32,000 bases of DNA, taken from Microcystis aeruginosa NIES-843 (GTDB lineage Bacteria; Cyanobacteriota; Cyanobacteriia; Cyanobacteriales; Microcystaceae). The notes beneath the pieces were generated by a model, which was not told the origin of the DNA, ran no database searches, and saw nothing but the letters and a program-made list of their open reading frames with translations. The stretch covers positions 960,001 to 992,000 of the forward strand of contig NC_010296.1 in NCBI RefSeq assembly GCF_000010625.1, read 5' to 3'. Shown here piece by piece: positions 527-9,325 of this stretch; within the stretch, counting starts at the first letter, position 1, and the number at the start of each line of letters is the position of its first letter. A program made the translations under genes and the position numbers.

Positions 527-2407
527 ATGAAGACTCCAACAGATCAAAGATTTGATTACGTCAAAATCGGTTTAGCGTCCCCCGAGAGAATTCGGCAATG
601 GGGAGAAAGAACCCTACCTAACGGTCAAGTCGTCGGAGAAGTAACCAAACCAGAAACGATCAACTATCGGACTCTTAAACCGGAAATGGATGGGTTATTC
701 TGCGAGAAAATTTTTGGCCCCTCCAAAGACTGGGAATGTTGGTGCGGTAAATACAAGCGCGTCCGTCACCGGGGAATTGTCTGTGAACGTTGCGGGGTGG
801 AAGTCACCGAGTCGCGGGTACGTCGTCATCGCATGGGTTTTATCAAATTAGCCGCCCCCGTCACCCACGTTTGGTATCTTAAAGGTATTCCCAGTTATCT
901 CAGTATCCTGCTCGATATGCCCCTGCGGGACGTGGAGCAGATCGTCTATTTTAATGCCTATGTGGTTCTCGATCCGGGTAATGCCGGCAATCTTAGTTAT
1001 AAACAACTCCTCAGCGAAGATCAATGGTTAGAGATCGAAGAAGAAATCTACGCGGAGGATTCGGAATTAGTCGGTATTGAAGTGGGTATCGGGGCCGAGG
1101 CTATCCAAAGACTCTTACAGGAAATTAACCTGGAAGAAGAAGCGGAAAGACTGCGGACGGAAATTGTCGAAAGTAAAGGGCAAAAACGGGCAAAATTAAT
1201 TAAACGTCTCCGGGTAATCGATAACTTTATCGCCACGGGTTCTCAGGCAGAATGGATGGTTTTAAGCGTAATTCCCGTGATTCCACCCGATTTACGCCCC
1301 ATGGTGCAGTTGGACGGCGGCCGTTTTGCCACCTCTGACCTGAACGATCTCTACCGTCGGGTGATTAACCGCAATAACCGTTTATCCCGTCTGCAAGAAA
1401 TTCTCGCCCCGGAAATTATCGTCCGCAACGAAAAACGGATGTTACAGGAGGCCGTCGATGCTTTAATTGATAACGGTCGTCGCGGTCGCACGGTGGTGGG
1501 GGCCAATAATCGCGCCCTGAAGTCTTTATCGGATATTATCGAGGGTAAACAGGGGCGTTTCCGTCAAAATCTCCTCGGTAAACGGGTTGACTATTCGGGA
1601 CGTTCGGTTATCGTTGTCGGTCCGAAATTGAAGATCTATCAATGCGGTTTACCCAGGGAAATGGCGATCGAATTGTTCCAACCCTTCGTTATCCATCGTT
1701 TAATTAAATTAGGCATCGTCAATAATATCAAGGCAGCCAAGAAAATGATCCAACGGGGGGATGCCAATGTTTGGCACGTCTTGGATGAAGTGATCACGGG
1801 ACACCCGGTGATGTTAAACCGCGCCCCTACCCTGCACCGTTTGGGCATTCAAGCGTTTGAACCGATCTTAGTGGAGGGCCGGGCGATTCAGTTACATCCC
1901 CTCGTCTGTCCCGCTTTTAATGCTGACTTTGACGGGGACCAAATGGCCGTACATATTCCCCTCTCCCTGGAGGCACAATCGGAAGCGCGCTTATTGATGT
2001 TGGCCTGTCATAATATTCTCTCACCGGCGACCGGTCGCCCGATTGTTGCCCCTTCTCAGGATATGGTTTTGGGTTGTTATTATCTCACGGCCGAAAATCC
2101 CAAGGCCCAAAAGGGTGGGGGCCGTTATTTCGCCAGCATGGATGACGCTATTCGCGCTTTTGATCAGGGATTGGTGGATCTGCACGCTTCTGTGTGGTTG
2201 CGTTTACCGGTCGGAGAAAAGGTGAAAACCAATAAACCCGATGAGGAAGTCCTGGAAACGGAAACTCTCCCCGATGGCAGCATCTGGAAATATTATCGGG
2301 AGCGCAAAACCCGCGAGAAAGATGGTGAGATAATTTCTCAGTATGTGCGTACTACTGTAGGGCGAATTATCTACAATAAGACGATTCTAGAAGCTTTAGT
2401 AGTCTAG
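527..2407 (+). CDS. rpoC1: DNA-directed RNA polymerase gamma subunit (N-terminal half of beta-prime)
   Basis: Zn-binding CWCGKY...CERCGV, catalytic [12 protein letters not shown] motif, and length 626 aa from ATG 527. The ORF track's TTG at 488 is probably an over-extension. Confidence 0.95.
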
Positions 2408-2423
2408 AGAAAGATTAGGTTAG

Positions 2424-2449
2424 GGTGGGCATTGCCCACCTTAATTTTT
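2424..2449 (+). terminator. Rho-independent terminator after rpoC1 (possibly shared with convergent ridA)
   Basis: GGTGGGC-att-GCCCACC stem-loop followed by TTAATTTTT, 17 nt after the rpoC1 stop. Confidence 0.55.
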
Positions 2450-2837
2450 AGGCTAAAGCGGCAATACATTCTATTTCCACTAGCACATCTTTGGGAAGAC
2501 GGGCCACCTCCACACAGGCCCGGGCCGGGGCAGTTTCCGGGGGGAAATAACGGGCATAAACTTGATTCATCGCCCCGAAATTGGCTAAATCCGAGAGAAA
2601 GACGGTGGTTTTCACCACATTTGACCAATTAGCCCCAGCAGCGGTTAAAATGCCCTCTAGATTGGCCATAACTTGTTCGGTTTGGGTGCTAATTTCCCTG
2701 GAGACGATTTCACCCGTGACGGGATCTAGGGGAATTTGTCCCGCAACAAAGAGAAAAGGACCAGGAGCGGCGATCGCTTGATTATAGGGACCCACAGGGG
2801 CTGGAGCTTTATCAGTACGGATGACCTGATTATTCAT
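2448..2837 (-). CDS. ridA: RidA/YjgF/L-PSP family reactive-intermediate deaminase module (possible independent start at ATG 2837)
   Basis: [22 protein letters not shown]...VFLSDLANF...[20 protein letters not shown] is a full-length RidA. Host-like GC composition starts exactly at this ATG. Confidence 0.8.
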
Positions 2838-3332
2838 ATGACGTTGCAATTCTGCATCTAACTCTTTTAACAAACCATATATTTTATCAAAATCACGTTT
2901 AGTTTTAGAAGGAGCGTCATAAGTTCTCAAAGTACCTTTAGTATGAGTATGAGCCGCTCGATTGCGACTATCTTTTAGATTACCAAGATAACCTTTTAAA
3001 GCACTAATTTTACCAGTTTTTTCTAACTTTTTTTCGATTTTTTCTAATGTTGCTAAACCAATAACCATCATCAACATTTTTCTAAAAGGTTCATATTCAA
3101 AACTATGAGTACCACTAATAGTCTTATCGATGAATTTTTTGTTAGCTTCGGACTTTAAGCATCGTTTAGCACATCTTAAAACTATATCATCCATAGTTTC
3201 CTCGATCCAGCCACATAATTCTATAAGAGCTAGTTTGGAATAAGAAGAAGTTTTTTGATTATCAGCTGTAGGGTCATCATGGAGTTGATCAAGCCAGTTT
3301 AACGTCTTGAGTAAATAATCTTTAGTAATCAT
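2448..3332 (-). CDS. HEPN (RiboL-PSP-HEPN-like, Rx4H) - RidA/YjgF fusion ORF, 294 aa
   Basis: The N-terminal 165 aa are AT-rich and carry [12 protein letters not shown] (R-x4-H, Abi2/AbiD-like HEPN signature). The C-terminal 129 aa are RidA. There is no stop codon between the two parts. Confidence 0.7.
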
Positions 3333-4431
3333 TACCAGTAGATGAAAAAATTTTGATAGATGTATTAATTCTCTCTAAAGCCTTATCTTTTCGATACATA
3401 CCACTAGATAAATTTTCAGTTAAAAATGGTTCAGATTTTATTAATCTAGAATACTTGTCTTGTAATTCACCATTGGAGAGATTGACTAAAGTATCTAAAT
3501 TCTTGGCAACTCCTAAAAGAATTCCCTCAGCAATAACTTTACTGGTTTTGAGAGGTTCCTCTTTGAAGATTTTATCATAAATCAAGTCAACGGTTTGCTT
3601 AAATAATTCATCTTTATCTTGAATAAAATCTGCGTGAGCAAATCTATGTTTATACATATAATCATTTAAAAATCTGGTCAATTTCCCCTTGTAGTTCTGG
3701 TATTCATCATAAAAAGCAAAGAAACGAAGCACTAATTCTTCATCTCCAAATCGAGATGCTTTTTGCTGCTCTCGATCCATCAGCAAAAGCCAGTTTTCAT
3801 ATTGAGCGCATTCTTTTAAAAAACTATTAAACTTGCCATTATAGATACAATTTCTGATCTCCTGATTGTTAAGTTTTACTCCACCAGTATTTAAGCGATG
3901 GAAAATGGTAAAAATATAATTATTATGAGCTTTTTTGCTGGAGTCATAGCGAATCATGGTGATGGGAATAGTCATATTTTCTACGCGTTCATATAATTCT
4001 TCATGCTGAGTTTTTATTTCCTCAACTGTTCTTCCAGAAATAGACGAATCTACATCGGGTAATTTTGATAGCCTCCAATCTTCAGTAGTTAAAAATTTGA
4101 CGATGGTACTAATTCGTTGTAATCCATCGATGATATAGCGTTTATCTGTCTTATAGTCAAGACTAATACACATACTAGGAATCGGTAACTGTTTCATTAA
4201 ACTATCAATAAAACGAGTTTGTTGTGCCTCACTCCACACCACATCTCTTTGAAAATCTGGATCGATAACCAATTGTTTTTTTTTATACATTCTAACTAGA
4301 TCAGAGCAGGATCGCTGCTCATTGTAAGCAATAATATCCGCAGGAGGAAAATCCACATCATCTTCTTCCTCTAGATACTTTTCTTCTTCGGCTGCTAGTA
4401 ATTTCTCTTCTTGACTGAGATAATTAACCAT
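3322..4431 (-). CDS. DUF262 (ParB-like NTPase/nuclease superfamily, GmrSD N-terminal type) protein, 369 aa, with no recognisable DUF1524/HNH part
   Basis: Motifs [23 protein letters not shown] (DGQQR motif) and [18 protein letters not shown]. Strong SD (AGGAGGG) lies 8 nt upstream of ATG 4431. The 3' end overlaps the HEPN ORF start by 11 nt. Confidence 0.85.
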
Positions 4432-4706
4432 AATTTTTATCCCTCCTAATATTGCCAATTCAAAAATGAAACGCACGACTCCTTAAGAGTTGACAGACAA
4501 AGGATCATCAGGTACTGTCTGATCAATACAACAACAAATCAGACCCAAAAACGAAGCCACCAACATCTTAACATAGAACAAAGAAACTTGCTCTATCAAC
4601 TTGGTCAAGAGGGAAATTTATCTCAATGGCAAATGGCAGCTGGGATGTCATCAAAGCACGACCAAAGCGAGAATTAAGAAGGAATCAAGGTTCCCTCGGA
4701 TGCTAT

Positions 4707-5918
4707 CTACTGAAAATTGGTATCTTCATCGATTAAGTTAGCAATGCGAGCATAATAATCCAGTAATCCAGTGACAGGATAGCGGTCTGCTAGAGCGATC
4801 GAGGGAATATAAGGTATGATTAGATAGTCTTCTGAATCTATATCTAAATCATGATCGGTAGTTTCATCTATATCTATATTTTTGTCAATATCCTTTTGTA
4901 AAATTTGCCAAGCATGAGTAACTTTAGTTATTCCTGTATCACTTAAATCGGGAACAGGTGAAAAAACAAAATTAAGCGAAAGTCGGCCGAAAGAAGTCAA
5001 AGATTGCAAAAGAAGCTCGATTCCTTTTTGATTTTGTTCGTTAGGAAATAAAAAAATAATTGCTTCGTTGGCTGCCTGTAGTAAAGATAAAGCTCCCCAT
5101 TCATTGATTCCAGTACACGAATCTACTAAGATAAGATCAGGTTTTAACTGATTTTGAATCTCTCGACTAAAAGTTGACCAGAGTGTTTCCCCATTATCGA
5201 GAATTGTTGTTGCTCGCAGATCATCAACTTTAGCAATGTAATCAAGACTCAAATAACCCGCAGGAACAATAAATAGTCTTCCCGTTGCATCGGGAATATT
5301 AACTTCTCCAAATATTTTAGTGATATTAATCTTTGCTTCTACACCTTCTGGTAAATAGGATTTTTCATAAAAATAGTCCACAATTCCGTATTCCGGTAAG
5401 GGATTTAAGGGAAAAGCTGTGCTTAACCCCGGTGCTTCTAAATCCAAGTCAACAGCTACTACTTTACGACCTCGCATCGCTAAAATCCAAGCAACATGAA
5501 TTAAAGCAGTTGTCCTACCTACTCCCCCTTTAAAAGAATAAAAAGTTACGGTTCTAGGAAGACAAAGTTCGGGAGAAGACGGTGATTGATTTTGTGGATT
5601 AGCTGACCACAAGGCTAAATCTTGCCAAGTGTGAATTGATTTTGCGTCCAGAAGTTGTGGAGCTTTTAGATCGAGAGAGGCTGCCTCCTGAATAGTATAT
5701 AAAGATATAAAACCTAAAAATTTATGCTGTTGTTCTATGTCATTTGTAACTGCTTCTCTTCGCTGAGTTGTTGATAAATTTTCAAACTTATCACTGACGA
5801 TAGTTATATTCAAAAGTCCAGCAGTAGATACATTGAGATCAACCCATTCTTGTGCTTCTTTTTGAACATATATATCTGTTAATTTTTGTTTCAGTGATCT
5901 TAACCAAGTTTCTGACAT
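4707..5918 (-). CDS. KGGVGR-variant ParA/MinD (SIMIBI) P-loop ATPase with a BolA-like N-terminal domain, 403 aa
   Basis: Deviant Walker A FYSFKGGVGRTTAL, then VVAVDLDLEAPG and a Walker B-like LILVDSCTG. The N-terminal ~110 aa carry ITIVSDKFx7RR...LYTIQE, which resembles the BolA signature. Confidence 0.8.
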   Translation of the reverse strand: MSETWLRSLKQKLTDIYVQKEAQEWVDLNVSTAGLLNITIVSDKFENLSTTQRREAVTNDIEQQHKFLGFISLYTIQEAASLDLKAPQLLDAKSIHTWQDLALWSANPQNQSPSSPELCLPRTVTFYSFKGGVGRTTALIHVAWILAMRGRKVVAVDLDLEAPGLSTAFPLNPLPEYGIVDYFYEKSYLPEGVEAKINITKIFGEVNIPDATGRLFIVPAGYLSLDYIAKVDDLRATTILDNGETLWSTFSREIQNQLKPDLILVDSCTGINEWGALSLLQAANEAIIFLFPNEQNQKGIELLLQSLTSFGRLSLNFVFSPVPDLSDTGITKVTHAWQILQKDIDKNIDIDETTDHDLDIDSEDYLIIPYIPSIALADRYPVTGLLDYYARIANLIDEDTNFQ

Positions 5919-5928
5919 AAGTATCTCC

Positions 5929-6363
5929 TTAAAGTTGAGTAGCTTGTTTCTGAAGCCATTGTTTCAGACCTGTATAAGCTGATAACCACTCTTTGTATTT
6001 ATCGTCATTCGGTTCACTGCTGGAATAACGCATATCTATAAAATTTTGACTAGGATTTTCTACCGGTTTTTCTACTATATTAATCCATTTTATCACGTCT
6101 GGATAATTTTGAACTCTCGAATAGAGACGATTATTACTTTTTAGAGCAGCTGTCAAACTGTGACCCGGATTAGTTATGGTATGTCCGGGGTTATTGGACT
6201 TAGTTTTCCATTCTTGACTGGATACCGAAGCTAAGATCATAGATTTCAGCAAACATTCGATCGTAATACCTCCAAAGTGCATAGCAGCTATTTTCCTATT
6301 AGATTTACAAAGTATTTCTGTATCTTGATGACGTTGTAAAAAAGCTGATTGGTAATCTTCCAT
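5929..6363 (-). CDS. Small helical protein, tentatively HEPN-domain (KNTase/sacsin-type), 144 aa
   Basis: Helix pattern AAMHFGGITIECLLKSMIL ... GHSLTAALK ... DMRYSS resembles classic HEPN (xxAxExxLKAxL ... HDLxxL ... RY). It also has NRKIAAMH (R-x5-H). It lies 10 nt upstream of the ATPase gene. The function call is weak. Confidence 0.45.
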   Translation of the reverse strand: MEDYQSAFLQRHQDTEILCKSNRKIAAMHFGGITIECLLKSMILASVSSQEWKTKSNNPGHTITNPGHSLTAALKSNNRLYSRVQNYPDVIKWINIVEKPVENPSQNFIDMRYSSSEPNDDKYKEWLSAYTGLKQWLQKQATQL

Positions 6364-6424
6364 CCCTAATTATCTATTCGCTAGAGTCAATACCTGTGAA
6401 TAAGTTTTTAGCTGAGGATTAAAC

Positions 6425-6456
6425 AAGGGTACTTTATTAGACAATAAAGCACCCTT
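6425..6456 (-). terminator. Hairpin immediately after the ileS stop (possible terminator or island boundary)
   Basis: 14-bp stem with one mismatch (AAGGGTACTTTATT / AATAAAGCACCCTT) and a 4-nt loop, 10 nt downstream of the ileS stop. The U-tract on the minus strand is weak. Confidence 0.4.
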
Positions 6457-6466
6457 TTAATTTAGC

Positions 6467-9325
6467 TTAGAACTCTCCTTTTAAAGCGGCATTACAGCGC
6501 TCGCAAATAGTGGGATCATCGGCAAATTTTCCCACTTGAGTGGAATAATTCCAACAGCGATCGCATTTTTCGCCCTCTGCTTTGACAATTCCCACCGAAA
6601 CAAAGTCCGATTCTCCTTTATATTCTGCGGTTTGAATCGCGCTAATATCACTAACTAATTCCACTTGGGAAGAGAGAAATAGATAACGCAATTCATCAAC
6701 TTTATTCCCCGTTAAACTATCACAATTGTTGAATAATTCTAACTCCTGTTGTAAGCTTTCATCGGGAACATAAAGTAAAACTTTTGCCTCTAAAGAAGCA
6801 CCGATCGCTTTATCATTTCTGGCAGTTTCCATCACCTTATTAACTTCGGTGCGTAGCTGCCGGAATTTCGCCCATTTATCGGCCAATTCGCGATTATTCC
6901 AAGCAGGATCGATGTTTAGCCATCCTGACTCAAATACTGATAAATAAGGAGTTTTGTAGGGGAGAAATTGCCAGATATCTTCCGCTAGATGAGACAGGAC
7001 AGGAGCGATCGCTTTAGCGAGATTTTCTAAGGCAATAGCATAGACTGTTTGACAACTGCGACGACGGAAAGAATTAGGATCAGAAATATATAAACGATCC
7101 TTAGCGATGTCGATATAAAAGTTAGATAAATCGACAACACAAAAATTCTGTACCGTCTGGAAAAAGCGGAAAAATTGGAAACTTTCAAAAGCTGCCGTTA
7201 CTTCCGTAAACACCTCCGAGATACGATGTAACATATAGCGATCGATCTCCGGTAGATCTTCATAAGCTACCGCATCTTTAACGGGATCAAAATCATTTAA
7301 ACTCCCCAGTAAAAACCTGGCAGTATTACGGATTTTATTACGGATATCTACCAACTGTTTGAGAATATTTTGACCAATATTCACATCATTGGTATAGTCC
7401 ACCGAGGACACCCATAACCGAATCACATCTACCCCATAAGCGGGTTCTTTTTTCTGGTCTTTACCACCATTAATGATCACATTGGGATCGATGACATTCC
7501 CCAGAGATTTACTCATTTTTCGTCCCTGTTCATCCAAAACAAAACCGTGAGTTAACACCGTTTTATAGGGAGCAATACCATTAGCAGCGACACTGGTTAA
7601 TAAACTCGATTGAAACCATCCCCGATGCTGATCCGATCCTTCTAGATACATATCCGCAGGATAACTTAATTCTGGTCGAGCATTAGCCACCGCATTCCAA
7701 CTAGAACCAGAATCAAACCACACATCCATAGTATCCATTCCCTTGCGATAACTGCGACCATTATTGCGATAACTGGGAGGTAACAATTCCTCTACGGATA
7801 ACTCCCACCAAGCATTAGAACCCTTGACCCCAAAGATAGCTTGAACGTGATTAATCGTCTCCTCCGTTAACAGAGGTTCATTCGTTTCTTCGTCATAAAA
7901 AACAGGAATAGGAACCCCCCAACTGCGCTGACGAGAGATACACCAATCGCTTCTTTCACTAACCATAGAAGTGATACGATTCTTACCCGTTGCAGGAATC
8001 CAACGCACCGAATCAATTGCTTCTAAAGCTAATTCCCGGAATCCTTCCACGGAAGCAAACCATTGTTCCGTTGCGCGGAAAATTGTCGGTTTTTTGGTTC
8101 TCCAATCGTAGGGATATTTATGCTGATATGCTTCTTCTTTAAGTAACGCACCCTTTTCTGTCAGTGCTAAAATGATTGCTTCATTAGCATCTTTCAAGAC
8201 ATTTAAACCCGCAAATTGTCCCGCTTCTGCGGTGAAATTTCCCTTATCATCCACGGGAGAAAGTATCGGTAAACCGTAACGTTGACCGACGATATAATCC
8301 TCCTGACCATGGCCAGGGGCCGTATGAACTAATCCGGTACCAGAATCAGTGGTGACATAATCCCCACCGATGAGAATAGCACTTTCTCTGTCAAACAAAG
8401 GATGACGATATTTAGTATGTTCTAATTCCAGACCTTTAACCGTTGCTTTAATCGTCAAAGTCCTGTTAAAAGTGTCGGCCAATTTTTCGACTAAATCCGT
8501 CGCTACAATTAGATAATTAGACTCGCTAGTTTCCACCACTGAATAGTTTAATTCTGGGTTCAATGCGACGGCCAAATTCCCGGGTAAAGTCCAGGGAGTA
8601 GTCGTCCAGATAGCGACGGATAAATTAGGCAAAAATGGCCTTAAAACCGGGGTTGAAACTGACGTAATCGGAAAAGCAACATAGACACTGCGGGAAGTGT
8701 GACCTTCGGGATATTCTAATTCTGCCTCAGCTAAAGCGGTTTGAGAACTAGGACTCCAGTGAACCGGTTTTAGTCCCCGATAAATATAACCTTTCAGGGC
8801 CATTTTTCCGAATACGGCAATTTGAGCGGCCTCGTATTCCGGTTGTAGGGTTAAATAGGGATTTTCCCAGTCTCCCCAGACTCCATACCTTTTGAAACCT
8901 TCACACTGTTCTTTTTGCGTTTGAAGGGCAAAATCGTGGGCTTTCTGACGTAATTTCACAGGGGTTAGACCCTCTTTTTCCGAGCTTTTGAGACTTTGTA
9001 AAACCTTCAGTTCGATCGGCAACCCGTGACAATCCCAACCTGGCACATAGCGCACTTTGTAGCCTTGCAGCAGTTTATATTTATTGATAATGTCTTTGAG
9101 AATTTTATTTAAAGCATGACCGATATGCAGAGACCCGTTAGCGTAGGGTGGTCCATCGTGGAGAATAAATAATTCTTTGGGGTTATTTTGCGCTAATTTC
9201 TCATATATTTGCTCATCTTGCCAGAATTTCTGGATTTCTGGCTCACGTTTACTGGCATTTGCTCGCATATCAAAGTCAGTTTGGGGCAAATTAACGGTAT
9301 CTTTGTAACTTTTAGCGTTGGACAT
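6467..9325 (-). CDS. ileS: Isoleucine--tRNA ligase
   Basis: Class I signatures HIGHALN and KMSKS, a CP1 editing region, and a C-terminal Zn-finger (CDRCWNY...CERC). Length 952 aa. Confidence 0.97.
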   Translation of the reverse strand: MSNAKSYKDTVNLPQTDFDMRANASKREPEIQKFWQDEQIYEKLAQNNPKELFILHDGPPYANGSLHIGHALNKILKDIINKYKLLQGYKVRYVPGWDCHGLPIELKVLQSLKSSEKEGLTPVKLRQKAHDFALQTQKEQCEGFKRYGVWGDWENPYLTLQPEYEAAQIAVFGKMALKGYIYRGLKPVHWSPSSQTALAEAELEYPEGHTSRSVYVAFPITSVSTPVLRPFLPNLSVAIWTTTPWTLPGNLAVALNPELNYSVVETSESNYLIVATDLVEKLADTFNRTLTIKATVKGLELEHTKYRHPLFDRESAILIGGDYVTTDSGTGLVHTAPGHGQEDYIVGQRYGLPILSPVDDKGNFTAEAGQFAGLNVLKDANEAIILALTEKGALLKEEAYQHKYPYDWRTKKPTIFRATEQWFASVEGFRELALEAIDSVRWIPATGKNRITSMVSERSDWCISRQRSWGVPIPVFYDEETNEPLLTEETINHVQAIFGVKGSNAWWELSVEELLPPSYRNNGRSYRKGMDTMDVWFDSGSSWNAVANARPELSYPADMYLEGSDQHRGWFQSSLLTSVAANGIAPYKTVLTHGFVLDEQGRKMSKSLGNVIDPNVIINGGKDQKKEPAYGVDVIRLWVSSVDYTNDVNIGQNILKQLVDIRNKIRNTARFLLGSLNDFDPVKDAVAYEDLPEIDRYMLHRISEVFTEVTAAFESFQFFRFFQTVQNFCVVDLSNFYIDIAKDRLYISDPNSFRRRSCQTVYAIALENLAKAIAPVLSHLAEDIWQFLPYKTPYLSVFESGWLNIDPAWNNRELADKWAKFRQLRTEVNKVMETARNDKAIGASLEAKVLLYVPDESLQQELELFNNCDSLTGNKVDELRYLFLSSQVELVSDISAIQTAEYKGESDFVSVGIVKAEGEKCDRCWNYSTQVGKFADDPTICERCNAALKGEF

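Follow-up and report, generated by a model that had tools for sequence, protein, structure and literature searches.

The RiboL-PSP-HEPN family was named by Anantharaman et al. (2013) after a fusion of HEPN and L-PSP domains that they described from Microcystis. Table 1 of that study has a Ribo L-PSP-HEPN entry, an "operon with ParB" is noted, and the two examples are gi:166363853 and gi:389884779, of which the second is attributed to Microcystis aeruginosa. The combination of HEPN and L-PSP was read by these authors as a "two-headed RNase" acting on mRNA. The first gi number probably designates the fused protein of M. aeruginosa NIES-843. The HEPN-RidA fusion is already known from the literature, and the preliminary description of this locus was right in pointing to a 2013 family of the Aravind group named for an L-PSP fusion and linked to ParB/DUF262 neighbours.

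Two further kinds of described systems are relevant to this locus. PD-T4-2, found in E. coli ECOR65, protects E. coli against T4 and contains PF18735 and DUF262 domains (Vassallo et al. 2022). In GmrSD, BrxU and SspE, the DUF262 domain senses modified DNA and activates the attached nuclease.

A PD-T4-2-type gene pair with a HEPN-RidA fusion

The ORF list of the window (i.e., the whole stretch of 32,000 nucleotides analysed) includes a PD-T4-2B-type ORF of 294 codons beginning with ATG (2448..3332, - strand); the preliminary description gave no strand for it. An exact-sequence look-up identified its product as BAG00934.1/B0JSP0_MICAN/WP_012264585.1 of M. aeruginosa NIES-843. This ORF consists of two parts, codons 1-165 coding for a HEPN domain (2838..3332, - strand) and codons 166-294 for a complete RidA. 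The HEPN part ends with ...ELDAELQRH and is directly followed by RidA; as initially reported, no stop codon separates the halves. Composition changes between the two, the GC content being 0.319 in the HEPN part (2838-3332) vs 0.508 in the ridA part (2448-2837) and GC3 being 0.21 vs 0.46, and the step falls exactly at the internal ridA ATG (2837..2835, - strand), where the preliminary description had placed it. Annotation of the gene differs by pipeline, GenBank and older RefSeq versions giving 294 aa and current RefSeq 129 aa. The HEPN-RidA junction is linker-less.

Profile searches agree with the HEPN identity previously proposed for residues 1-165, which we assign to the RiboL-PSP-HEPN family and to the B component of PD-T4-2. 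Pfam HEPN_RiboL-PSP (PF18735) matches at aa 13-159 with 29.0 bits, a marginal score relative to the cut-off of 28.4 that is nevertheless backed by 246 homologues retrieved at E<=1e-3, many of them with PF18735. Among PADLOC profiles, PDLC04028 (168 positions) scored 214 bits over residues 1-165 and PD-T4-2_B PDLC04030 (294 positions) 688.8 bits over residues 1-294, while a further PD-T4-2_B match reached 106 bits. The catalytic motif R123-N-R-A-A-H128 (Rx4H; 2949..2966, - strand), read directly from the sequence, is intact; alignments of 33-34 family members show no variation at R123, A127 or H128 and a conservation of at least 90% at N124. The AlphaFold2 model of the HEPN part is all-alpha with seven helices (pLDDT 86.8). 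A Foldseek search of the PDB with this HEPN-only model gave no match with E<0.5, the weak matches highest in probability being HEPN toxins (7bxo_F, probability 0.60; 8xeh_D; 1jog_A), and a PDB sequence search with the HEPN half gave no match. When the whole fusion was modelled, the HEPN half was again modelled well and the RidA half remained below a pLDDT of 50 because the alignment lacked depth there. Stand-alone relatives of the HEPN half are 165-170 aa long. Other C-terminal variants of HEPN exist, e.g., P0004, which ends with ...QRHRKFGSETPSFYDGFTVKY.

Adjacent to the fused gene and on the same strand is a PD-T4-2A-type DUF262/GmrSD_N (ParB-like) gene (3322..4431, - strand; PF03235, 90.8 bits; PADLOC PD-T4-2_A, 528 bits), so that components A and B of PD-T4-2 are both present. 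The likely start of the DUF262 gene is the ATG at 4431, located after a GGAGG (alignment A3), the mechanical ORF reaching a GTG at 4476, and the gene overlaps the HEPN start by 11 nt. Every fused or stand-alone locus has an intact DUF262 gene with this 11-nt overlap, and a DUF262 gene lies directly upstream of HEPN in 78 of 80 species-representative genomes. The upstream region of the pair (4477..4706, - strand) is conserved among Microcystis loci (alignment A3). Next to it lies a second defence-candidate pair (4707..6363, - strand) coding for an AAA ATPase with a KGGVGR motif (4707-5918) and a 144-aa protein (5929-6363), with matches to NF047398 (167.6 bits) and to PADLOC PDC-M28B (137 bits) and PDC-M28A (32 bits). 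This second pair is variable cargo of the interval between ileS and ridA and stands outside the fusion; it is missing from fused loci L017, L018 and L024, and an R-M system occupies its place in L021-23. On the other side, a GC-rich, terminator-like hairpin (2423..2437) between the convergent ridA and rpoC1 genes likely serves both as a shared terminator; the same element occurs in L007.

The fused partner is the core ridA gene

The ridA part (2448..2837, - strand) comprises 129 codons plus stop and is identical to the separately annotated WP_041804545.1. That a RidA begins at ATG 2837, as first suggested, is confirmed by NCBIfam TIGR00004 (Rid family; 160.7 bits vs a cut-off of 106.25, aa 169-292) and by Pfam Ribonuc_L-PSP (PF01042; 147.8 bits, aa 174-292). 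In the PDB, phmmer matched RidA proteins as well as enamine/imine deaminases (down to 1e-41), PAR...VEIE being part of the alignment, and the region around the active-site Arg aligns position by position to ...KPARVAVEVSRLPKDVLIEIE... of PDB 2dyy. The role of this active-site arginine (Arg105 in enterobacterial numbering) is established in the RidA literature, and RidA proteins are homotrimers. Work of the Downs laboratory is said to have identified RidA-family proteins as enamine/imine deaminases, and the NCBIfam name and PDB molecule names give the same assignment. On sequence grounds, the ridA part is predicted to encode the housekeeping 2-iminobutanoate/2-iminopropanoate deaminase, and the RidA moiety would be a deaminase of reactive enamines and imines, not an RNase partner. 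The fused RidA is ~99% identical to the stand-alone ridA product of other Microcystis strains, and ridA adjoins rpoC1 in every Microcystis locus, whether defence genes are present or absent. No second RidA was found in the 32-kb window.

A 161-nt deletion joins HEPN to ridA

The order in syntenic stand-alone loci (L001-L010, L012 and L016) is ileS, cassettes, DUF262, HEPN (167/168 aa), a 152-nt spacer, ridA and rpoC1. A separate HEPN gene whose product ends with ...QRH(N/K)C* was found in 28 loci, which come from bloom metagenomes and other strains of Microcystis, and these relatives accordingly have a stand-alone ridA at the same locus. The fused allele equals the stand-alone arrangement minus one contiguous 161-nt block (alignment A1), its HEPN part being without the final two codons and the stop that the stand-alone gene has. 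Relative to 17 stand-alone loci, drawn from proteins and species representatives, and to 11 metagenome loci, the gap measures exactly 161 nt. It is located at the fusion junction ...CGT CAT|ATG AAT... (2837..2838, - strand), and the breakpoint shows a 1-nt microhomology (A). Since the 152-nt spacer is also found upstream of ridA in loci devoid of HEPN (L011, L014, L015 and six metagenome contigs), it belongs to the ridA flank. We propose that in a Microcystis sublineage a single 161-nt deletion took the last two HEPN codons, the stop and the whole spacer, bringing HEPN codon 165 in frame with the ridA ATG.

The junction CAACGTCAT|ATGAATAAT is identical in 10 independent assemblies, namely NIES-843, NIES-4285, a FACHB isolate, M. 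ichthyoblabe FBCC-A1114 and metagenome contigs from JGI, ENA and Logan. As these cover isolates and metagenomes as well as different technologies, and as fused and unfused states differ by a block of 161 nt rather than by a point change, the chance that a sequencing or assembly error hides a stop or frameshift in NIES-843, a caveat of the preliminary description, is practically nil. The ten fused loci also have one C-terminal-helix haplotype in common, which together with the identical junction argues for a single origin of the fusion; they occur in three different upstream contexts. A compensatory role for the three C-terminal-helix differences of the fused alleles was considered and is not obvious, K...K being also present in stand-alone P0054 and P0055.

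The ileS-ridA interval is a hotspot for defence cassettes, which differ by strain and have a recognisable right-edge motif. Depending on the strain, this motif, TGTTGACTTATTTCTC..ATCGCTT, comes after the HEPN gene, after a methylase gene or, in a degenerate version, after an ATPase gene, and the HEPN 3' end coincides with a cassette boundary. A relic of the ridA 5' region is found upstream of DUF262 in L021-23. Insertion of the cassette into the ridA leader, considered on account of this relic, was rejected, as alignment A3 indicates that the relic arrived with the R-M cassette replacing PDC-M28. The earlier suggestion that an island insertion captured the translation start of ridA is likewise contradicted by most strains, which carry the same pair in this position, complete with a HEPN stop codon and the 152-nt spacer; the fused allele is a secondary and precise 161-nt deletion, and the insertion itself did not make the fusion.

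Distribution and selection

Among 80 species-representative genomes with the RiboL-PSP-HEPN family, a single one, a Microcystis genome, has the fusion, and ridA lies within 3 kb of HEPN only in seven loci, all from Microcystis. In the 73 HEPN ORFs from outside Microcystis, the stop comes 0-11 aa past the domain, and no ridA occurs within 3 kb. None of 17 unbiased metagenome ridA starts is fused, and no HEPN-RidA from outside Microcystis was found among the best 120 and 150 matches listed in two protein searches. PD-T4-2 is often absent from unfused loci (three targeted loci and 6 of the 17 metagenome contigs). With one fused locus in 80, RidA fusion is not characteristic of the RiboL-PSP-HEPN family. 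The genuine HEPN-RidA fusion envisaged in the preliminary description thus holds as a real ORF recovered in ten assemblies but not as a family-level architecture.

The dN/dS ratio of ridA is 0.15 in fused and 0.11 in unfused loci, and that of DUF262 is 0.2-0.55 and 0.3-0.65, respectively. By these ratios, the RidA half and the DUF262 partner remain under purifying selection in the fused lineage. For HEPN, dN/dS is ~1 or higher in the fused lineage (Nd 3-14, Sd 0-3) vs 0.71 in stand-alone alleles, both values being high; the HEPN half could be decaying in the fused lineage, the counts being too small to tell.

Expression of the fused ridA

The 25 nt that precede the internal ATG contain no SD-like element, as stated in the initial reading of the sequence, but the native unfused ridA start likewise lacks one, so that this detail discriminates nothing and internal initiation is plausible. 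According to local RNA folding, the mean unpaired probability around the internal AUG is 0.46 in the fused vs 0.71 in the native context, a difference that is suggestive of, though not decisive for, poorer internal initiation in the fused context. Scans for sigma-70-type promoters and terminators across 2380-4800 and in the unfused L007 spacer yielded no more matches than shuffled sequence did. The sigma-70-type scan located a promoter neither in the L007 spacer nor ahead of the operon, and the promoter-like match at 4599..4570 (- strand) is of a kind no commoner than in shuffled sequence. Judging from position, the ridA promoter would have been lost with the spacer, and region 4477..4706 (- strand) may be the sole remaining candidate operon promoter region for ridA in NIES-843. 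Deprived of its own 5' region, ridA would owe its transcription to the defence operon, or to read-through from ileS in L017-like strains, and RidA would be made either as the C-terminal domain of a 294-aa product or by initiation at the internal AUG, which is still in place. Literature searches using the accessions, or RidA together with Microcystis, returned no relevant expression or proteomic evidence for the fused protein.

Origin and significance of the fusion

The fusion is best read as an accident of gene adjacency that has been tolerated rather than as a designed two-headed RNase. We consider it very probable that HEPN-RidA is a 161-nt deletion allele of the PD-T4-2/ridA locus, carried by a minority of Microcystis as such a tolerated accident. 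The published interpretation would instead make the protein a selected bifunctional effector, HEPN and L-PSP acting jointly on mRNA in an adaptive family architecture; the catalytic motifs are indeed kept in both halves and the fused allele persists across at least three upstream cassette configurations. We nevertheless regard this interpretation as highly improbable, given that the fusion is confined to a minority of strains of one genus (one of 80 representatives, none of 17 metagenome contigs), that the fused RidA is encoded by the core ridA in its syntenic place beside rpoC1, also found in defence-free strains and unchanged in sequence and selection, that the RidA family is now assigned to the enamine/imine deaminases, and that signs of co-adaptation are absent. 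A one-step origin, by which the PD-T4-2 cassette would have recombined straight in at the ridA ATG with no stand-alone precursor, could account for the HEPN 3' end lying at the cassette boundary, for the right-edge motif shared with the methylase and ATPase genes, for other C-terminal variants such as P0004 and for the ridA relic upstream of DUF262. Such an origin is very unlikely, however, as the stand-alone state is the majority at the same locus and differs by a single contiguous block, and as an R-M cassette imported from an L014-like donor accounts for the relic in L021-23, where 14 nt from the end of the ATPase gene and the complete region upstream of DUF262 are still present.

Promoter capture offers another explanation, that of an anchoring or "addiction" in which ridA depends on the defence operon, making loss of the PD-T4-2 cassette costly and thereby stabilising it in a hotspot with cassette turnover. 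Removal of the whole ridA 5' flank by the deletion is consistent with this, as are the purifying selection on the fused ridA and the retention of DUF262 in 10 of 10 fused loci while cargo farther upstream varies and unfused loci often lack PD-T4-2. Yet the retention comparison is circular, since the fused allele has HEPN by definition and stand-alone HEPN also always keeps DUF262; moreover, the fused allele is rare and not sweeping, and ridA may escape the cassette via an internal promoter or ileS read-through. We therefore hold anchoring by promoter capture to be unlikely. It is also quite unlikely that ridA serves as a hostage through which the fusion itself anchors PD-T4-2 at a locus of otherwise free cassette exchange, an arrangement distinct from classical toxin-antitoxin addiction, with RidA trimerisation possibly altering HEPN oligomerisation or activity.

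These findings serve mainly as a correction: if HEPN-RidA is a tolerated deletion allele, the family name HEPN_RiboL-PSP used in Pfam and InterPro and the "two-headed RNase" inference rest on a strain-level allele of one genus, in which HEPN was joined to an ordinary gene for a metabolic deaminase that chanced to lie downstream. In Microcystis populations, fused, unfused and cassette-free alleles of one locus form a natural series, which could be used for testing the effect of a C-terminal appendage on the PD-T4-2 HEPN and the stabilisation of a cassette by capture of a core gene.

Relation to known systems

Like PD-T4-2, the NIES-843 pair is a two-gene operon in which a DUF262/GmrSD_N gene precedes a PF18735 HEPN gene, with strong PADLOC matches to both components. 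Unlike the E. coli system, its B gene is C-terminally fused to RidA, its host is a cyanobacterium and its anti-phage role is putative. The A protein has a DUF262 NTPase-type N-terminal domain as do GmrSD, BrxU and SspE, whereas the pair lacks their DUF1524 nuclease domain and its effector is a separate HEPN RNase-type protein; by analogy, the DUF262 NTPase would probably sense an infection cue and license the HEPN RNase. Residues 166-294 resemble RidA/YjgF/UK114 proteins (TIGR00004) in being full-length and in keeping the catalytic PAR and VEIE, but the gene differs from an ordinary ridA in having neither its own 5' region nor a stop-delimited start, as it forms the C-terminal part of a defence gene. 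Finally, the HEPN of the window is a member of RiboL-PSP-HEPN (PF18735) and the Microcystis fusion is the namesake of this family; the name implies a fused architecture, whereas the other members examined are stand-alone proteins of ~165 aa.

Structure of the fused gene

The mechanical ORF list places a 294-aa HEPN-RidA ORF with an ATG start on the minus strand (2448..3332), and an exact-sequence look-up identified its product as BAG00934.1 / B0JSP0 / WP_012264585.1 of Microcystis aeruginosa NIES-843. Read directly, the junction region (...ELDAELQRH|) passes into RidA without a stop. The composition shifts precisely at the internal ATG (2837), from GC 0.319 and GC3 0.21 over codons 1-165 to GC 0.508 and GC3 0.46 over codons 166-294. 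Pfam HEPN_RiboL-PSP matches aa 13-159 with 29.0 bits (cut-off 28.4), Pfam Ribonuc_L-PSP matches aa 174-292 with 147.8 bits, and NCBIfam TIGR00004 (Rid-family hydrolase) covers the C-terminal half with 160.7 bits. The preliminary description of this ORF, with two domain halves, no intervening stop and a boundary at the ridA ATG, is thus borne out, including the match of residues 1-165 to a HEPN profile; the minus strand is added here. Product annotations conflict: the length is 294 aa in GenBank and in older RefSeq (BAG00934.1, WP_012264585.1), and current RefSeq also has a 129-aa RidA inside the NIES-843 fused ORF (WP_041804545.1; 2448-2837). Likewise, M. ichthyoblabe FBCC-A1114 has a separate protein (P0030) identical to the RidA part of locus L025.

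Origin by a 161-nt deletion

At 90% identity, the fused protein clusters with members of both 294 aa and 168 aa, and Microcystis RidA also exists on its own as a protein of 129 aa (138 aa when an upstream ATG is called). Contigs from other Microcystis strains do carry a stand-alone ridA at this locus, in the order ileS, cassettes, DUF262, HEPN (167/168 aa, ending ...ELDAELQRH(N/K)C*), spacer, ridA and rpoC1. Aligned with this arrangement (alignment A1), the NIES-843 junction lacks one contiguous block of 161 nt, made up of 9 nt (AA(A/C) TGT TGA) and the 152-nt spacer, with a single nucleotide of microhomology at the breakpoints. The exact block was found in 11 stand-alone loci sampled through proteins, in 5/6 stand-alone Microcystis species-representative genomes and in 11 metagenome contigs. 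In M. novacekii (L029:3498-3799) HEPN codon 165 lies 301 nt from ridA, versus 161 nt elsewhere, implying an insertion in the spacer. In Microcystis sp. LSC13-02 (L031:3001-3485) the tblastn HEPN match starts 139 nt past the end of DUF262, so the HEPN gene there may be disrupted.

The preliminary description proposed either a genuine fusion or an island insertion capturing the ridA start. The spacer also precedes ridA in loci devoid of any HEPN gene (L011, L014, L015 and six metagenome contigs); it is therefore ridA's own flank, and the change is a deletion from the stand-alone arrangement rather than an insertion. The fusion itself is real, since a missed stop or frameshift caused by sequencing error is ruled out by the identical junction in ten fused loci (isolates; JGI, ENA and Logan assemblies).

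Single origin and rarity

Four distinct fused HEPN alleles have in common a C-terminal-helix haplotype absent from the sampled stand-alone Microcystis alleles, and the 5' parts of fused alleles are mosaic with stand-alone ones. These sequence patterns indicate that a single deletion event, followed by recombination, gave rise to the fused alleles. When one genome per species was scanned with a profile, 80 loci with the RiboL-PSP-HEPN family were detected. DUF262 lies directly upstream of HEPN in 78/80, ridA lies <3 kb from HEPN in only the 7 Microcystis loci, and the sole fusion is that of M. ichthyoblabe FBCC-A1114; all non-Microcystis HEPN ORFs (73/73) end 0-11 aa past the domain. No HEPN-RidA protein from outside Microcystis appeared among the matches listed (120 and 150) in two large protein searches, and none of 17 ridA starts in unbiased metagenome contigs was fused. 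The long matches in these searches (among them P0170, P0176 and P0151-P0158) are pentapeptide-repeat::RidA fusions (302 and 247 aa) or proteins with 2-3 tandem RidA domains (265-459 aa).

A defence-cassette hotspot between ileS and ridA

Every gene from ileS (9325..6467) through the fused ORF lies on the minus strand. Downstream of ileS, 6363..4707 encodes a KGGVGR-motif AAA/ParA-like ATPase (NF047398) and a 144-aa protein, matching PADLOC PDC-M28B and, weakly, PDC-M28A. After a 230-nt gap comes the DUF262/GmrSD_N gene (4431..3322), with GGAGG 8 nt before its ATG (the mechanical ORF reaches a GTG at 4476), which overlaps the fused ORF by 11 nt. A hairpin (2423-2437) separates the fused ORF from convergent rpoC1. 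In the 144-aa protein, the residues SNRKIAAMH contain an R23-x5-H29 motif. The PDC-M28 pair (4707-6363), a second defence candidate directly upstream of PD-T4-2, may be an instance of the 'MAE_18760-family HEPN + ParA/Soj ATPase' dyad that the 2013 HEPN paper put forward as a toxin-antitoxin system.

The ileS-ridA interval (2838-6466; compared loci L001-L024) is a defence-cassette hotspot in Microcystis, carrying, depending on the strain, PDC-M28 and PD-T4-2, PD-T4-2 alone, a BanI-like R-M system and PD-T4-2, R-M alone, or an 888-aa ATPase alone. Three arrangements are seen upstream of the fused allele: PDC-M28 and DUF262 in NIES-843, DUF262 straight after ileS in L017, L018 and L024, and the BanI-like R-M system and DUF262 in L021-23. 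Cassettes have in common a right-edge motif, TGTTGACTTATTTCTC..ATCGCTT, just before the ridA flank. The TGT TGA codons closing the stand-alone HEPN belong to this shared flank motif, which also follows the methylase gene (L001:8499-8520; L007:7867-7890; L014:745-775), so the cassette boundary lies inside the last HEPN codons. A C-terminal HEPN variant, P0004, ends ...QRHRKFGSETPSFYDGFTVKY, a sequence that suggests further rearrangements at this edge.

A ridA 5' relic (about -108 to -27) lies between the R-M methylase and DUF262 at L021:4380-4640 (also L022 and L023), followed by ~150 nt with a 63-aa minus-strand ORF. It was considered as a sign of insertion into the ridA leader and rejected: L021-23 retain the final 14 nt of the ATPase gene together with the whole region upstream of DUF262 (alignment A3), so the fragment came with the R-M cassette from an L014-like donor. 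The methylase abutting ridA in L014 is the same as in L021-23. At L017:4817-4902 (also L018 and L024), 85 nt with a hairpin (AAAGGGTGCTTTATTGTCGAATAAAGTACCCTTTT) and an SD separate ileS from DUF262, and the 260-nt upstream region of NIES-843 is absent; the PD-T4-2 operon, hence ridA, may therefore depend on ileS read-through in these strains.

State of the two halves

The fused protein retains the HEPN Rx4H dyad (R123...H128), which does not vary within the family, and its HEPN domain is predicted as a seven-helix bundle (pLDDT 86.8). No significant PDB match to this model was obtained; the weak matches of highest probability are HEPN toxins. Solved RidA/enamine-imine deaminase structures align with the whole of the RidA half, and the PAR...VEIE context of the active site is conserved. 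Nei-Gojobori dN/dS estimates for the fused and stand-alone lineages are 0.15 and 0.11 for ridA, and 0.2-0.55 and 0.3-0.65 for the DUF262 partner, so both genes are being maintained. Evolution of the HEPN half is fast whether it is fused (about 1.5; 3-14 nonsynonymous and 0-3 synonymous differences) or unfused (0.71), with counts too small to separate the two states, and its rate is compatible either with relaxed constraint or with the diversifying selection often seen in defence genes.

Significance of the fusion

Enamine/imine deaminase activity is now the accepted function of the RidA family, and the RidA-family matches obtained here bear that name in NCBIfam and PDB entries. Together with the deletion origin and its scope, this weakens the 2013 reading of the protein as a two-headed RNase. 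The HEPN-RidA fusion, although real, is already known: the family table of Anantharaman et al. 2013 includes it, from Microcystis, under 'Ribo L-PSP-HEPN', and also notes an operon with ParB. Pfam took its family name from this published fusion, for which PADLOC has a separate model. The present analysis adds its origin and scope, namely a 161-nt deletion allele, in a minority of Microcystis strains, through which a defence gene became joined to ridA, a core gene in conserved synteny. Most likely, the fusion arose by accident between neighbouring genes in a defence-cassette hotspot and has been tolerated. The suggestion that coupling ridA to a toxin-like RNase resembles addiction is at most a low-probability possibility; that fused loci seem to keep PD-T4-2 is a circular argument for it, since a fused allele has the HEPN gene by definition. 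These results correct the family name and annotation and provide a natural allelic series for experiments.

Expression and the PD-T4-2 pair

The deletion removed all sequence between HEPN codon 165 and the ridA ATG, including any ridA promoter or leader in the spacer. The fused ridA would then rely on transcription from the defence operon, or on read-through from ileS in loci where DUF262 comes straight after it, and RidA would be made as the C-terminal domain of the 294-aa protein, by initiation at the internal AUG still present, or in both ways. As previously noted for the internal ATG, no SD-like element precedes it; the native ridA start lacks one too. Somewhat more RNA structure is predicted around the fused start (mean unpaired probability 0.46 vs 0.71 for the native one).

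In PADLOC, the DUF262 protein matches PD-T4-2_A with 528 bits, and the fused protein is classed as PD-T4-2_B, the 294-position B model matching end to end (688.8 bits) and B models of 168 and 174 positions covering residues 1-165 only. PD-T4-2 was isolated from E. coli ECOR65 and protects native and heterologous hosts against T4. In a working model drawn purely by analogy with GmrSD, BrxU and SspE, the DUF262 NTPase would sense an infection-associated DNA cue and license the HEPN RNase.
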